From NCBI GenBank assembly GCA_030753015.1, contig JASMDC010000003.1:90780-154779 (forward strand): a stretch of 64,000 nucleotides of DNA, in the 5' to 3' direction. The translations under genes and the position numbers were made by a program. This document shows, in pieces, positions 54,870 through 62,483 of this stretch. This stretch comes from Candidatus Undinarchaeales archaeon. GTDB taxonomy: Archaea; SpSt-1190; JASMDC01. Every line of letters begins with the position of its first letter. The first letter of the stretch is position 1. The notes under the pieces are model-generated. The model was not told the origin of the DNA. It did no database searches and worked only from the letters and a program-made list of their open reading frames with translations.

Positions 54870-55517
54870 ATGCCCATGGCCGAACAGAAGGTGCAGCTCA
54901 GATGTTATAGTTACATCGACATGTTGCAGCCGCAGTTCGCGTCGTACTTTGCCACAGTGGCCCGAGGCTACCTCCCAAAGGCGGGCCAGGCCGCCCTCTT
55001 TATCGAGATCGCTCCCGGGATGCCCATCAATCGGATCACTGACGTGGCCGTGAAGGCCACATCAGTCACTGTTGGCGAGCTCATCGTCGAGCGGTCCTTC
55101 GGATTCCTGGAGATTCACCATGACTCCCAGGCCGAAGTGATGCAGGCAGGCCAGGCAATCCTCGACTATCTGGGAATCGATGAGTCCGATAGGCTCAAGC
55201 CCAAGCTCGTCACCAACCAGATCATCAAACGGGTAAACGATTATCACTCCATGCTCATCAACCGCAGTACCAAGGGCATGATGCTCGTGCGGGACCAGTC
55301 TCTCTACATAGGTGAGACCGTCCCTGCAGGCTATGCTGCGTACGCTGCCAACGAGGCTGAAAAGGCGGCCGATATCAACATTATCAACGTGCGCGCCGTT
55401 GGACGTTTCGGACGGTACTATATCGGCGGGACCGAGTCAGAGGTCCAAGCAGCCATGCAGGCCGCAACCGTTGCGGTGAATTCTCTGGAAGGTAAGGAAG
55501 AGGAGCGAAAGAAATAG
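54870..55517 (+). CDS. BMC shell trimer, BMC-Tdp (CcmP/CsoS1D-like)
   Basis: LRCYSYIDMLQPQFA, EIAPG, VERSFGFLEIH, RLKP, LINR, PAGYA..AANEAEKAA, GRFGR. Confidence 0.9.
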   Translation: MPMAEQKVQLRCYSYIDMLQPQFASYFATVARGYLPKAGQAALFIEIAPGMPINRITDVAVKATSVTVGELIVERSFGFLEIHHDSQAEVMQAGQAILDYLGIDESDRLKPKLVTNQIIKRVNDYHSMLINRSTKGMMLVRDQSLYIGETVPAGYAAYAANEAEKAADINIINVRAVGRFGRYYIGGTESEVQAAMQAATVAVNSLEGKEEERKK

Positions 55518-55624
55518 CCCACCCGGGCGCCGCCCCGGGGGATATAATTTAAAGGAATACGTCCGTTATACCTATCTCCCGAAGGGAGAACTGTTCACTG
55601 AAAGAGTATCGGAGGCGACCATAA

Positions 55625-55939
55625 ATGGAAGGGAACATCGCACTCGGCATGATTGAAACACGGGGCCTTATAGGCTCTATCGAGGCCGCGGACGCCATGG
55701 TTAAGGCGGCACGGGTCAATCTCATTGGCAAGGAATTCATCGGTGGAGGCTATGTCACCGTGATGGTACGTGGTGATGTGGGAGCTGTGAAGGCTGCCGT
55801 CGACGCTGGCGCTGCTGCTGCTAAGCGCGTCGGTGAGCTCGTGTCTGTGCACGTCATACCTCGCCCCCACGGCGATGTGGAGTACATCCTCCCCAGTATC
55901 GACACGGCGGCCGAACATCCGGTCGTCAAGAAGAAATAG
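55625..55939 (+). CDS. BMC shell hexamer (BMC-H, PduA/EutM/CcmK-like)
   Basis: ALGMIETRG...[10 protein letters not shown]...[13 protein letters not shown]...[20 protein letters not shown] box at about 55548. Confidence 0.97.
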
Positions 55940-56015
55940 GGTCGCATCGTGAGACCGTCCCCGGTCATACCGGGGGCGGTCGGACCGGATACTTGGGAAG
56001 AGGGGTCGTCATCGT

Positions 56016-56744
56016 ATGGACGCTGATGAGTTGATTGAGGAGATCACCAACGAGGTCCTCAAGCGTTTCGATCCTACTTTTATCCGTATCGAGGACCGCC
56101 GCATTCTTGTTGTGCTCCACACACCTGATAGGCATGTACCTCTTGCCCTGACACGGCTCCTGGAGGATGTCGGTCCGCCGAGTGATCGGGATATCCTGGT
56201 TACGCCTGAAGTGCGTTCTTACCTGGCAGGACTCGGTATCAACTGTCGGGATCATGCTCGCGACGTCTTCGAACCTGATGCCGTCCCCGGAATCCTCCAT
56301 CGCCTCCATGAATATCGCATGGTGGTCGTCCCTGCTGTGAGCTTCCATACCGTGCGCGCCATCGCCGAGCTGCGGGACGAGGAGCCCTTCGTGCAACTTG
56401 TACTCCAAGCATTGCTACGGGGGTTGAAGGTAGTGATGCTCACCGATGCGCTCGTACCTGCCCAGCGTGAGGGCGCGTCCGTGGCCCCGGGTCTCACGGC
56501 CGCGGCCGAGGATAACTTAAAAAAGCTACTTGCCTACAACATCGTGCTCGTACGGCTCGATGAGATTGGGACGGCGGTAGCAGAGAAGAAAGTGCCTTCG
56601 TCCAAGGACCTCATCACTGAGCAAGACATCATTGACCTCAAGAACGGTGATGTGACCGGACTCAGGGTGCCCCCCAAGACGATCGTGACGCCGCTGGCGC
56701 GCGACAAGGCGAAGGAATTGGGCATCACAATCATCCGGGAATGA
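56016..56744 (+). CDS. BMC-associated flavoprotein-like protein with N-terminal encapsulation peptide
   Basis: N-terminal DELIEEITNEVLKR helix; C-terminal LITEQDI...TIVTPLARDKAKELGITI motif of metabolosome accessory proteins. Confidence 0.7.
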   Translation: MDADELIEEITNEVLKRFDPTFIRIEDRRILVVLHTPDRHVPLALTRLLEDVGPPSDRDILVTPEVRSYLAGLGINCRDHARDVFEPDAVPGILHRLHEYRMVVVPAVSFHTVRAIAELRDEEPFVQLVLQALLRGLKVVMLTDALVPAQREGASVAPGLTAAAEDNLKKLLAYNIVLVRLDEIGTAVAEKKVPSSKDLITEQDIIDLKNGDVTGLRVPPKTIVTPLARDKAKELGITIIRE

Positions 56745-56781
56745 TGCTCGGGATCCCGTGCGGGGAGAGGGGTAAGCGTCC

Positions 56782-60465: not shown

Positions 60466-60771
60466 ATGGAGACACCGACAGGCTGGGGGGATGCCCTTGG
60501 AATGGTGGAGACGCGGGGTCTCGTTGGTGCCATTGAGGCTGCCGACGCCATGGTCAAGGCAGCACGGGTCTCTCTAGCGGGGCTCGAGCGTATTAGTGGT
60601 GGACTGGTGACGGTGATGGTGCGGGGTGACGTCGGGGCCGTGAAGGCTGCGGTCGACGCTGGAGCCGCTGCTGCCCAGAGGGTTGGTGAGCTCGTTGCAG
60701 TCCACGTGATCCCCCGTCCCGACGAACTGGTCGAGGGCGTTATTCCACATGGCCCGGGGGGGCGAGGGTAG
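60466..60771 (+). CDS. BMC shell hexamer (BMC-H), second copy
   Basis: ALGMVETRG...[10 protein letters not shown]...[13 protein letters not shown]...HVIPRP. Confidence 0.96.
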
Positions 60772-61062
60772 ATGCTCCTTGCCCGGGTCGTGGGCAACAT
60801 CTGGGCTACTCAGAAGATACCTGTGCATGCGGACCAGAAGATCATGGTATGCGTCCCCGTCGACCTGAAGGGGAAATCCGAGGGCGACACATTCCTGGCC
60901 ATCGACCGTGCTCAGGCGGGGATTGGGGATGTCGTGCTGATATCCCAAGAGGGTAAGTGCTGTAACATGCTCATCGGCCGCGAATGGGCGGCCTGCAACT
61001 CAGCTATCCTCGGGATAGTGGACTTAATCGAGACAGAGGAAGGATCAACACAGTTTGCGTGA
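60772..61062 (+). CDS. BMC vertex pentamer (BMC-P), second copy
   Basis: MLLARVVGNIWATQK...AIDRAQAGIGDVVLI..EG...AILGIVD. Confidence 0.93.
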   Translation: MLLARVVGNIWATQKIPVHADQKIMVCVPVDLKGKSEGDTFLAIDRAQAGIGDVVLISQEGKCCNMLIGREWAACNSAILGIVDLIETEEGSTQFA

Positions 61063-61064
61063 TT

Positions 61065-61994
61065 ATGATGGACGACGAAGAACTAGCCAAAGTGGTGAGA
61101 GATGTTGTACTCTCGAAACTCCAGGAGAAACAGGCCCAAGACGCACTTTCGGCGTCCCCGGAAGATACGTCCCCTGAAGGGACCATCCCGCGTCATACCT
61201 ATGCAGAAGCTGGTAATCCCCCCCTCATCGTGGCGGCAAATTGGAAGATGCACATGGACAAGCGATCTACAACTGAGTTCGCCCAGGCGTTCGATCCGCC
61301 TGCACGGGACGACCTCGGTGTTGTAATATGCCCGCCCTATTACCTACTATCCCTGCTCAAAGATGCCTTGGGTGACAAGCCCGTGGCAGTAGGTGCCCAG
61401 AACATGCACCCTGAGCCAAAGGGGCCCTTCACGGGCGAGCTATCCCCTCTCATGCTCGCTGATGCGGGCTGCTCGCATGTAATCCTCGGCCACTCCGAGC
61501 GCCGGAAAAACTTCGGTGAGACCTCTGAAAAGATCAATCCGAAGGTGGCCGCCGCCCTCGGTGCGGGACTTGCTCCAATCCTATGTGTGGGGGAGACGCT
61601 AGATCAAAGGGAAGATGGTGCGACCATGCGTGTGGTCACCAACCAACTCACCCTCAGCCTCAACCGTATATCCATCAACGAGGTGCGTCCCCTTATCATT
61701 GCTTACGAGCCGATGTGGGCCATCGGCACCGGACGGAACGCCACTCCTGAGCAGGCGCAAGAGGTCCATGCGCACATCAGAGAGGTGCTCAAGCAGCTTT
61801 ATTCCTACAACGTTGCCCGGGACACACGCATCCTCTACGGTGGTTCGGTGAAGCCGGACAATGCTGGCGACCTGGCAATCCAGCCCGACGTGGACGGATT
61901 CCTTGTGGGCGGGGCCAGCCTCAAGCCAGACTCCTTCACCGAAATCATCCGCAACGCCCTGCGTGCGTTGGAGAAAGACGGCTCACAGGGGTGA
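61065..61994 (+). CDS. tpiA: Triosephosphate isomerase, bacterial type, with N-terminal encapsulation peptide and linker
   Basis: AANWKM, GAQN, FTGE, ILGHSERR, IAYEPMWAIGTG, LYGGSV, LVGGASL; about 50-aa N-extension beginning DEELAKVVRDVVLSKL. Confidence 0.93.
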   Translation: MMDDEELAKVVRDVVLSKLQEKQAQDALSASPEDTSPEGTIPRHTYAEAGNPPLIVAANWKMHMDKRSTTEFAQAFDPPARDDLGVVICPPYYLLSLLKDALGDKPVAVGAQNMHPEPKGPFTGELSPLMLADAGCSHVILGHSERRKNFGETSEKINPKVAAALGAGLAPILCVGETLDQREDGATMRVVTNQLTLSLNRISINEVRPLIIAYEPMWAIGTGRNATPEQAQEVHAHIREVLKQLYSYNVARDTRILYGGSVKPDNAGDLAIQPDVDGFLVGGASLKPDSFTEIIRNALRALEKDGSQG

Positions 61995-62000
61995 TGCCAG

Positions 62001-62483
62001 ATGGACTTCACGAAGGACACTCGCGTAGCGATCGGCAGCGACCACGGTGGCTTCGAGCTCAAGGAGATCGTGAAGGACCACCTCCTGCGATTGGGTTATT
62101 GTGTAGTGGACCTCGGATGCCATTCTCCGGACCCGGTGGACTATCCCGACATAGCCTTCCTTGTCGCCAGTGCCATAGCGACCAACGACGACACGGCCGG
62201 TATTATGGTGGACGGTGTCGGTGTTGCTTCTGCCATGGTGGGCAACAAGGTGCCCGGCGTGCGGGCCGCGCCGGTGTACGACGTGTTCTCGGCCAGGTCC
62301 AGTCGTGAGCACAACGATGCTAACATGCTCACTCTTGGTGCTAGGGTCACAGGGCCTGGTTTGGCGTGCCTCGTCGCCGAGGAATGGCTTGTGACGCCCT
62401 TCGGTGGGGGACGACACGAACGGCGGGTGAACAAGATCCGGGACATCGAGGCCCGCTTCATCCGGAGGGTACCTCTGAAATAG
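62001..62483 (+). CDS. rpiB: RpiB/LacAB sugar-phosphate isomerase
   Basis: IGSDHGG, VDYPD, NKVPGVRAA, SREHNDANMLTLG, GGRHERRV. Confidence 0.92.
   Translation: MDFTKDTRVAIGSDHGGFELKEIVKDHLLRLGYCVVDLGCHSPDPVDYPDIAFLVASAIATNDDTAGIMVDGVGVASAMVGNKVPGVRAAPVYDVFSARSSREHNDANMLTLGARVTGPGLACLVAEEWLVTPFGGGRHERRVNKIRDIEARFIRRVPLK

Follow-up and report, generated by a model that had tools for sequence, protein, structure and literature searches.

The DNA analysed here is a stretch of 64,000 nucleotides (the window; G000:C51:90780-154779, where G000 is the bin of a Candidatus Undinarchaeales archaeon of the SpSt-1190 lineage and C51 is its contig), which ends at the contig end and carries near that end a locus for a bacterial microcompartment (BMC). 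Such protein-shelled metabolic organelles were, to our knowledge, long treated as a purely bacterial invention. We consider it probable that the locus encodes a selectively maintained, expressed-looking metabolosome of the sugar-phosphate-utilisation (SPU) type in a large-genome marine archaeon, and that it is of bacterial origin by horizontal transfer. The result gives firm evidence of a non-Asgard archaeon in which the full organelle kit is kept under selection, in two species. It is not the discovery of a new kind of system. The main text of the 2021 BMC catalogue does not contain the word 'archaea' (PMC8217296), and an earlier note on this DNA, made from the sequence alone, still regarded BMCs as bacterial organelles. 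This premise is out of date, since archaeal loci were reported in a preprint of November 2025 (Du et al., bioRxiv; PMC12747264), and the novelty that followed from it does not hold.

The phenomenon has thus already been reported, very probably including the locus of this lineage, and what is given here is an independent confirmation of a claim made in passing in one unreviewed preprint. To the main text of that preprint we add the insertion of pilin genes, the sister relation to a locus of the Thermoplasmatota lineage JASLWR01, the selection on 14 genes and hints of transcripts. Further additions are the order of all genes of the locus despite a break in the assembly, the genome-wide lack of phosphotransacylase (PTAC) and acetate kinase (AckA) and the presence of the stretch in marine and seawater metagenomes.

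Genes were called from a listing of open reading frames (ORFs) together with Pfam (E ≤ 0.001) and NCBIfam profile scans. By these, 11 co-oriented genes are packed on the + strand within positions 54870-62483 (Table 1), with gaps between genes of 0-37 bp from the Flav gene to the RpiB gene. They encode two BMC-H proteins, a BMC-Tdp, a PduT-like BMC-Ts, two BMC-P proteins, a CoA-acylating aldehyde dehydrogenase (AldDH), a PduS-like oxidoreductase, a flavoprotein-like protein (Flav), triosephosphate isomerase (TPI, TpiA) and ribose-5-phosphate isomerase B (RpiB); all of the genes named in the earlier note are thereby confirmed within the positions that it gave.

The locus does not end at 62483, where the earlier note had closed it. 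In the second species of the same genus (G001), which carries the locus on a 134-kb contig (C11), the RpiB gene is followed by a 245-aa archaeal pilin-like gene, BMC-P3, a 473-aa deoxyribose-phosphate aldolase (DERA) and a class II aldolase, and beyond the aldolase come convergent leucyl-tRNA synthetase, topoisomerase I and 2-oxoacid:ferredoxin oxidoreductase genes. In G000 the genes for P3, DERA and the aldolase lie at the end of contig C33, and their products are 95.4%, 95.6% and 93.3% identical to those of G001. The full order, seen directly in G001 and pieced together in G000 from C51, C14 and C33, is Tdp-H1-Flav-P1-AldDH-PduS/MNdh-Ts-H2-P2-TPI-RpiB-pilin(s)-P3-Flav-DERA-class II aldolase, in which MNdh stands for metabolosome NADH dehydrogenase and Flav-DERA is a single fused protein. 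Starting within the pilin gene, G001 and the reverse complement of C33 stay collinear over 14 kb or more, with 88-89% identity. The 637-b contig C14 overlaps four contig ends by exactly 77 b, those of C51 and C28 at one of its sides and those of C33 and C84 at the opposite side. The assembly break at the window end is due to a two-copy pilin repeat that was collapsed by the assembler, and the path C51-C14-C33 was chosen because of the synteny with G001. Once the genes on C33 are counted, this is a complete SPU-type metabolosome locus. A PF00936 search of the contigs found no BMC-domain gene elsewhere in the G000 bin.

The pilin genes, which the earlier note had placed directly after the locus, are real (34.2 and 37.6 bits to the TIGR02537 pilin domain, cut-off 20), but they lie within the locus and not beyond it. 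As the end of the locus they are ruled out by G001, in which P3, DERA and the aldolase follow the pilin, and pilin genes are found inside the microcompartment operon in both species. Pilin A is an additional, more divergent paralogue specific to G000, and its 1-kb stretch has no counterpart in G001, whereas pilin B, which is cut by the contig end, is 98% identical to residues 2-58 of the single G001 pilin between RpiB and P3 and is its orthologue. Pilin-like genes form a family in G000: the near-identical two-copy gene breaks the assembly at four contig ends, and a further paralogue of ~50% identity is located at C40:74159-74671.

All shell classes (BMC-H, BMC-T and BMC-P) are present, with seven proteins: two H, Ts, Tdp and three P. 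The first gene product was assigned as BMC-Tdp because its alignment to the CcmP family is full length, even though the score of 265.5 bits is below the family cut-off of 340. In a search of a collection of 5.8 billion proteins the Tdp homologues are 99%, then 87% and otherwise at most 67% identical. BMC-P3 is matched with 78.7 bits on C33 and with 79.1 bits in G001, and the three P proteins, of 104, 96 and 109 aa, are all tailless. The Ts protein carries a CPGK motif, named as the Fe-S motif of AMC-Ts in the main text of PMC12747264. According to the same text, closed-shell assembly was shown experimentally for Hodarchaeales proteins only; here the shell is known from its genes.

The cargo enzymes can be recognized by similar means. 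In AldDH, Cys279 is kept by every one of the 23 homologues aligned, and the PduS-like protein contains two 4Fe-4S motifs (Cys 254/257/260/264 and 299/302/305/310). The Flav-DERA protein (473 aa) consists of a 250-aa N-terminal domain followed by a DERA domain, which is matched by the deoC equivalog with 284.7 bits (G001, NCBIfam) and gives 299 bits to the solved DERA 8qps. Its catalytic Asp/Lys motifs look conserved by eye in comparison with those of the E. coli enzyme. The class II aldolase (Aldolase_II, 172.1 bits in G001) is without an N-terminal extension. For TPI the most likely start is 61065 or 61068 and not 60984, where the ORF opens. From this start, three bases after P2, the protein begins with an N-terminal amphipathic helix of acidic character and a linker of ~35 aa, followed by the TIM barrel. 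N-terminal amphipathic stretches are also found in Flav, AldDH and Flav-DERA, with hydrophobic moments of 0.59-0.64 (AldDH 0.59), and, judged from sequence, the N-termini of these three proteins and of TPI resemble encapsulation peptides (EPs). With the DeoC-type aldolase, which is on C33 and not in the window, added to RpiB and the CoA-acylating AldDH, the SPU triad is complete and the likeness to SPU loci seen in the earlier note proves to be right.

The stand-alone Flav protein has no Pfam match at E ≤ 0.001 and weak NCBIfam matches to TIGR02536 and PduM. It was rejected as a PduM, since only the last ~45 residues match, with 24 bits where the cut-off is 50. Among the Atlas clusters, those nearest to it are PF02441 'flavoprotein' (0.91-0.94), and a profile-profile comparison shows its homology to the N-terminal domain of Flav-DERA (hhalign probability 99.5%, E 3.4e-22, 223 columns). 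Only this comparison reveals the homology, as BLASTP between the 242-aa protein and the N-terminus of DERA found nothing. Profiles of the Flav family gave nothing significant against PDB sequences, one profile catching just the start of the DERA domain. The N-terminal extension of DERA is called a flavoprotein domain in the main text of PMC12747264, and the Flav gene sits before P1-AldDH in Myxococcota, Hodarchaeota and JASLWR01 loci too. With the PF02441 clusters and the homology to Flav-DERA, the name 'flavoprotein-like' used in the earlier note holds as a lead.

Host and integrity of the locus

The data support an archaeal host and a locus that is native to it, not an assembly or binning artefact. 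The same contig encodes L35Ae, an archaeal-type class I lysyl-tRNA synthetase (LysRS; TIGR00467, 387 bits), a PAC2-family protein and a regulator of the DUF7343/HVO_A0261 type, and the rpl35ae gene is 2.4 kb upstream of the locus, as the earlier note had it. In the bin there are four genes for the TATA-binding protein (TBP; eight domain matches), and the TBP profile matches only the 4 archaeal genomes among 14 controls. Geranylgeranylglyceryl phosphate (GGGP) synthase is also present in the bin. The four TBP genes are located on C48, C44, C53 and C65, and C53 is the most compositionally deviant contig; these genes may be real paralogues or partly derive from the 5% contamination of the bin. 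The bin has a size of 3.85 Mb and is 98.9% complete. Genomes of the genus measure 3.6-3.85 Mb and the nearest ones beyond it are same-class genomes of 0.6-1.2 Mb, which is a DPANN-like neighbourhood of small class-level relatives for a 3.85-Mb genome. SpSt-1190 genomes of ~4 Mb among otherwise small DPANN genomes are described in the accessible text of PMC10936187, and the sizes found here agree with this.

Contig C11 of G001 is collinear with C51 over 124243-153284 (to the end of RpiB) at 89% DNA identity with both flanks kept, and the flanks common to the two species amount to ~20 kb upstream and 25 kb downstream. In a check of public metagenomes by sampled words of the stretch, 23 runs were listed, of which 10 rows are possibly source runs; at least half of the sampled words were found in 18 of the 23 runs, and the 20 rows with any part of the stretch represent 11 marine or seawater metagenome studies. 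Logan contigs of 100% identity, from two runs in two studies that carry no source flag, bridge the upstream boundary of the locus (54085-54932 and 54645-55730), and one Logan contig runs from 59398 through both pilin genes to 648 b past the window end. The earlier note had raised the possibilities of an assembly chimera at a boundary and of a near-identical bacterial counterpart. No such chimera was found, G001 being collinear on both flanks and the upstream boundary being bridged; no such counterpart was found either in the 5.8-billion-protein collection, with AldDH at most 63% and Tdp at most 67% identical to any protein outside the genus.

When 433 genome chunks of 8 kb are ranked by their tetranucleotide distance from the genome mean, the locus comes at the 34th percentile. 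The composition of the locus is fully ameliorated, which bears out the absence of a compositional break reported by eye in the earlier note. Between G000 and G001, dN/dS is 0.013-0.102 for all 14 of the 14 locus genes, with dS of 0.35-0.59 (H1 0.11). The values for the shell genes (0.013-0.08) are as low as or below those for the enzymes, and reference genes on the same contig give 0.036 (LysRS), 0.054 (MetK) and 0.153 (L35Ae). Purifying selection acts on all 14 genes at a level comparable to that on housekeeping genes. The description of the locus as acquired and domesticated, also from the earlier note, is a fair reading because the context is shared by two species, the composition is ameliorated, pilin genes are inserted, selection acts on the genes and the closest homologues outside the genus are only 59-67% identical.

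Related loci and phylogeny

The search of related archaeal genomes with the PF00936 profile, which the earlier note had suggested, covered 401 archaeal genomes in the neighbourhood of G000, of which four match (E ≤ 0.001). Clusters are found only in G000 and G001, with 5 matches each; the other two genomes (G298 and G273) have single marginal BMC-domain matches of 25.4 and 20.4 bits. By the AldDH profile, 80 named genome loci were fetched and 120 proteins were listed. The identity of AldDH is 94% inside the genus and no higher than 63% beyond it, with 54-59% for the named Hodarchaeales/Heimdall proteins and 52-59% for the named Myxococcota/'Deltaproteobacteria' ones. The best of the 80 fetched loci by AldDH are those of JASLWR01 Thermoplasmatota (59%), Hodarchaeota (58%) and metagenome-assembled genomes (MAGs) of Thermodesulfobacteriota/Myxococcota (55-57%).

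The main text of PMC12747264 reports AMCs in 66 of 111 Hodarchaeales genomes and deals in a few sentences with loci in 'DPANN (mainly SpSt-1190)' and in JASLWR01 Thermoplasmatota, which cluster with Myxococcota and Hodarchaeales and have an extra Tdp and no PTAC; JASLWR01 has lost one H. The SpSt-1190 loci, as described there, share with ours the DPANN-related archaeal host, two H, one Ts, the extra Tdp, the lack of PTAC and the same low diversity (a within-lineage branch length of 0.08 in that text, two species at ~89% DNA identity here), and nothing in the description is demonstrably different. Our locus most probably belongs to the same set.

The JASLWR01 locus L018 (JASLWR010000064.1) has the 5' Tdp (63% identical to ours and at the same position), the core Flav-P1-AldDH-PduS-Ts-P2-TPI-RpiB-P3-...-Flav-DERA and no PTAC. 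It differs in its single BMC-H, placed after P3, in having no pilin genes and in showing no class II aldolase match within the 13.8 kb fetched. Its proteins are 45-63% identical to those of our locus and its BMC-H 79%; Pfam scans of its flanks gave nothing taxonomically informative. The type II AMC of Hodarchaeales, according to the main text of PMC12747264, has in common with our locus Flav-DERA, AldDH, MNdh (PduS-like), RPI, TPI, a class II aldolase, a Ts with CPGK, three BMC-P and the same bacterial source clade. It has PTAC, citrate synthase and a K/R-rich disordered DNA-binding tail on P2 and lacks Tdp, whereas in our locus Tdp is present, PTAC is absent and the P proteins are without the K/R tail. 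Citrate synthase did not appear in the general Pfam and NCBIfam scans of the locus genes, and no dedicated search for it was made.

The Myxococcota SPU loci (B64-G9/HGW-type; L021-L023) show a near-identical core order, the Flav-DERA fusion and enzymes that are 44-56% identical to ours, but their host is bacterial, no Tdp is found within the 10-kb flanks and the BMC-H comes after RpiB/P3 and not at the 5' end. Myxococcota SPU loci carry PTAC (main text of PMC12747264). With the subtypes SPU1-SPU7 (PMC8217296; accessible text of PMC11585597) our locus shares DERA (pfam01791), RpiB (pfam02502), AldDH, a homologue of PduS and the TPI of SPU1 and SPU4, and the N-termini of its AldDH, DERA and TPI resemble the encapsulation peptides that these enzymes bear there. 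Yet it fits neither SPU1 nor SPU4 cleanly, because these TPI-bearing subtypes, in the accessible text of PMC11585597, pair TPI with PTAC and have no Tdp, whereas here TPI stands with a class II aldolase and Tdp and without PTAC.

The core gene order of L018 is also that of L021-L023, and the core common to the Myxococcota-type loci, JASLWR01 and our locus reads Flav-P1-AldDH-PduS-Ts-P2-TPI-RpiB-P3-H-Flav-DERA. A Tdp at the 5' end of this core is found only in the two non-Asgard archaeal loci. Among the 80 fetched loci 15 have a Tdp match, and the start Tdp-H-P1-AldDH occurs in a different bacterial clade (Nitrospinota, 'Deltaproteobacteria', Archangiaceae and Bacteroidota) at 47-56% identity. 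The Flav-DERA fusion is present in 5 of the 80 and in one more that is cut by a contig end, all in the Myxococcota/archaeal clade. Five loci of Nitrospinota/'Deltaproteobacteria' (L027, L043, L051, L042 and L071) are arranged as Tdp-H-P1-AldDH-PduS-Ts-P-P-class II aldolase, with no DERA or RpiB match in the fetched flanks, and the 5' module of such L027-type bacterial loci resembles the start of the archaeal locus. Separately, L026 (a 'Bacillota' MAG) and L029 (a 'Burkholderiales' MAG) have a near-identical AldDH (end branches 0.025 and 0.013) and the same layout, which points to a very recent transfer or to a mis-binned contig in one of the MAGs.

In the AldDH tree, a quick search with 51 rows (35 of the 80 fetched loci, 14 of the 120 listed proteins, G000 and G001), G000 and G001 are sister to the JASLWR01 clade with an SH-aLRT support of 94; such a tree had been proposed in the earlier note. 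A concatenated AldDH+PduS+Ts tree of 29 rows (27 of the 46 loci with all three genes at ≥ 75% coverage, plus G000 and G001) has the sister grouping with JASLWR01 at 96, within a 99-supported 10-row clade together with Hodarchaeota and Myxococcota-type loci. A tree constrained to keep the four archaeal rows as one group loses 1.88 log-likelihood units (p-AU 0.358, for a group named after the tree was seen), and therefore a single entry into Archaea is compatible with the data. Myxococcota as a proven donor was rejected: in the rooted concatenated tree the archaeal rows are basal to the Myxococcota-type rows with a weak support of 81, because of which the direction of transfer is left open.

On our reading the locus would have been acquired horizontally from bacteria, its source being the lineage to which the Myxococcota and Hodarchaeales loci also go back, and would have a more recent common origin with the JASLWR01 locus. 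A tentative extension, for which we see the smaller part of the chances, is that a Tdp-bearing, PTAC-less 'archaeal edition' of the SPU organelle has spread among unrelated marine archaea, perhaps from one entry that includes Hodarchaeales, and was rewired for archaeal metabolism. Its basis is the sister relation of the two lineages (94 and 96), the Tdp at the same position, the p-AU value and the absence of PTAC and AckA. In such an edition the PTAC/acetate-kinase exit would have been dropped, and a wide, gated Tdp pore would have been added through which acetyl-CoA and CoA could be traded directly with an ADP-forming acetyl-CoA synthetase in the cytosol. An unsampled bacterial donor of the same architecture is equally possible.

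Proposed function and competing readings

From homology to the described systems, the seven shell proteins (two H, Ts, Tdp and three P) would form a closed polyhedral shell, to which Flav, AldDH, TPI and Flav-DERA would be recruited by their N-terminal amphipathic helices. 2-Deoxyribose-5-phosphate from cytosolic nucleoside phosphorolysis would enter this shell and be cleaved by DERA to give glyceraldehyde-3-phosphate (G3P) together with acetaldehyde; the trapped acetaldehyde would be converted by AldDH to acetyl-CoA and NADH. The PduS-like flavo-FeS protein may reoxidise the NADH, with the electrons leaving via the PduT-like Ts pore and its 4Fe-4S cluster. Both the SPU pathway and the export of electrons by MNdh and Ts have been proposed before (PMC8217296; accessible text of PMC11585597 and PMC12747264). 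In a second branch, the class II aldolase and TPI may turn ketose-1-phosphates into dihydroxyacetone phosphate (DHAP) and an aldehyde, and DHAP into G3P. The least certain step, in which our confidence is low, is the recycling of CoA: acetyl-CoA and CoA are presumed to pass the large, gated pore of Tdp in an exchange with an archaeal enzyme of the cytosol, because no phosphotransacylase or acetate kinase was matched in the genome. On the supply side the genome contains 6 PNP_UDP_1 and 2 PYNP (pyrimidine-nucleoside/AMP phosphorylase) matches. The locus suggests that sugars derived from nucleic acids are scavenged as part of the lifestyle of an archaeon with a free-living-sized genome among DPANN-type relatives.

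Transcription of the locus is hinted at by contigs from RNA libraries that are 99-100% identical to it and lie on H1/Flav, Flav/P1, AldDH, the AldDH/PduS junction, PduS, H2/P2 and TPI; other such contigs lie on the L35Ae/nucleotidyltransferase region and on pilin B. They come from two metatranscriptome libraries of one study and are patchy (16 and 10 of 30 bins), and carry-over of DNA is possible. This is one of several points that weigh against the reading of the locus as a working, transferred organelle. The steps of the mechanism are all inferred from homology, and shell and enzymes alike are known here from genes alone. Among the contigs of the 98.9%-complete bin there is no DeoB-type phosphopentomutase (TIGR01696), which leaves the supply route of deoxyribose-5-phosphate incomplete, and no PTAC (PF06130) or acetate kinase match, which leaves the recycling of CoA unexplained. 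Nor is PTAC found among the G001 locus genes, and the only ADP-forming acetyl-CoA-synthetase-like match, on C37, is weak (48.6 bits). On the side of the host, no match to the archaeal small-subunit rRNA (RF01959) was found in the bin, bin contamination is 5.01%, and the contig also holds bacterial-type genes (MetK and XseA). In G000 alone the path C51-C14-C33 is ambiguous, as C28 and C84 share the same 77-b overlaps, and the join rests on the synteny with G001. The trees are quick searches with long branches, and the rows of the concatenated tree were picked after the AldDH tree had been seen.

In one competing reading the genes are those of a co-occurring bacterium, joined to archaeal DNA by misassembly or mis-binning. 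The locus is located 1.5 kb from a contig end, where the assembly breaks, and the close relatives of its genes outside Archaea are all bacterial, to which the contamination of the bin and the other bacterial-type genes on the contig can be added. However, the second species has the same locus with ~20 kb upstream and 25 kb downstream collinear, the L35Ae gene stands on the same contig, archaeal pilin genes lie within the locus, and the upstream boundary is bridged by contigs of two unrelated studies. The composition is that of the genome, the 5.8-billion-protein collection holds nothing closer outside the genus than the 63% (AldDH) and 67% (Tdp) given above, and the break itself is accounted for by the two-copy pilin repeat. 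By this evidence the artefact is already largely refuted, and we give it a negligible chance. A relic is also very improbable, that is, an acquired locus without a working organelle that has lost PTAC, is interrupted by pilins and serves as a source of ordinary cytosolic enzymes. The missing PTAC and AckA would fit it, as would the gaps of 247-340 bp and the pilin genes that part RpiB from P3-DERA-aldolase and the finding of a shell-gene cluster in just 2 of the 401 sampled archaeal genomes. Against it, both species have all seven shell genes intact, at the low dN/dS values of 0.013-0.08, the EP-like helices are kept on four cargo proteins, the Fe-S motifs are kept in Ts and PduS, and RNA-library contigs cover shell genes.

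Another hypothesis accepts the organelle as real and differs in its main substrate, which would be ketose-1-phosphates (for example fuculose- or rhamnulose-1-phosphate, like those of the PVM compartments of Planctomycetes, or 5-deoxyribulose-1-phosphate), with DERA and RpiB in a secondary role. The class II aldolase and TPI would then give DHAP and lactaldehyde or acetaldehyde. Both enzymes are in the locus, the aldolase with 172.1 bits and the TPI with an EP-like N-terminus, and the plain DERA route has no role for TPI. Bacterial loci with the Tdp-H-P1-AldDH start (L027, L043 and L051; Nitrospinota and 'Deltaproteobacteria') have the aldolase and no DERA match in their fetched flanks, and the role of RPI in metabolosomes is called unexplored in the main text of PMC12747264. 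On the other hand, DERA with its encapsulation-type N-terminus and Flav domain is kept in every member of the clade, DERA, RpiB and AldDH are the defining SPU triad (PMC8217296), and the class II aldolase is without an N-terminal extension and is absent from the 13.8 kb fetched of L018. We regard ketose-1-phosphates as the main substrate as unlikely, although the two routes are not mutually exclusive, and prefer the DERA-based SPU metabolosome.

Upstream region and other genes of the contig

The features of the window that belong to the locus or stand close to it are collected in Table 1.

Table 1. Features in and around the microcompartment locus, in positions of the window.
Feature	Position	Strand	Evidence and remarks
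rpl35ae (L35Ae)	52189-52449	-	67.4 bits
Upstream gene, 143 aa	54361-54792	+	Dinitrogenase FeMo-cofactor-binding-like domain (41.8 bits) and C-terminal zinc-ribbon-like stretch
Inverted repeat	54801..54819	.	Perfect 9 bp, 1-base loop; read from sequence
TATA-box-like element	54824..54832	+	38 bp before the first locus ATG (54870); read from sequence
BMC-Tdp (CcmP-like, tandem permuted BMC domains), 215 aa	54870..55517	+	NCBIfam CcmP 265.5 bits, residues 8-213; Pfam BMC 31 bits
BMC-H1 hexamer, 104 aa	55625..55939	+	Pfam PF00936, single domain, 105.7 bits
Flav, stand-alone flavoprotein-like protein, 242 aa	56016..56744	+	N-terminal amphipathic helix, PduM/EutQ-like C-terminal module
BMC-P1 pentamer (vertex), 104 aa	56782..57096	+	Pfam PF03319 (EutN_CcmL) 98.2 bits
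CoA-acylating AldDH (EutE/PduP type), 476 aa	57108..58538	+	NCBIfam PRK15398 642 bits, cut-off 403; Pfam Aldedh
PduS-like metabolosome NADH dehydrogenase, 444 aa	58550..59884	+	Pfam Complex1_51K 162.6 bits, SLBB, Fer4_17, RnfC_N; FMN domain
PduT-like BMC-Ts, 182 aa	59889..60437	+	Tandem BMC domains, Pfam 159.8 bits; CPGK motif at residue 38
BMC-H2 hexamer, 101 aa	60466..60771	+	Pfam PF00936, single domain, 104.4 bits
BMC-P2 pentamer, 96 aa	60772..61062	+	Pfam PF03319 65.9 bits; without disordered tail
TPI	61065..61994 (ORF from 60984)	+	Pfam TIM 309.6 bits; start ATG 61065/61068
RpiB (ribose-5-phosphate isomerase B), 160 aa	62001..62483	+	Pfam LacAB_rpiB 162.7 bits
Pilin/archaellin-like protein A (class III signal peptide), 266 aa	62731..63531	+	NCBIfam TIGR02537 34.2 bits, cut-off 20
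Pilin-like protein B, N-terminal part, start uncertain	63822..64000	+	Cut by contig end; continues on C14, ends on C33

Immediately upstream of the locus stands a gene that is conserved in G001 (84.6% identity, dN/dS 0.20) and stops just before the inverted repeat (GGAGGGCGC / GCGCCCTCC), which looks like a terminator hairpin parting this gene from the locus. Between the repeat and the Tdp gene stands TATTAAATA. The TATA box announced in the earlier note is present there, and by its position it is a putative archaeal promoter element. In an Rfam scan, the window gave two tRNAs and nothing else.

Other genes of the window lie further away from the locus. One ORF of 4130 aa (13278-25670, - strand) has no Pfam family at E ≤ 0.001 and has the most deviant composition on the contig, with the chunks of C51 at 104000 and 112000 lying at -5.2 and -3.1 SD on PC2. 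Two tandem paralogues of M18 aminopeptidase (47347-48642 and 48760-50184, both on the - strand) score 164.3 and 163.3 bits. On this archaeal contig there is also a MetK of the bacterial/eukaryotic type with three S-AdoMet_synt domains (44774-45937, + strand), and the window further encodes the large subunit of exonuclease VII (XseA; 8876-10198, + strand). The presence of MetK and XseA suggests a wider import of genes from bacteria in this lineage.

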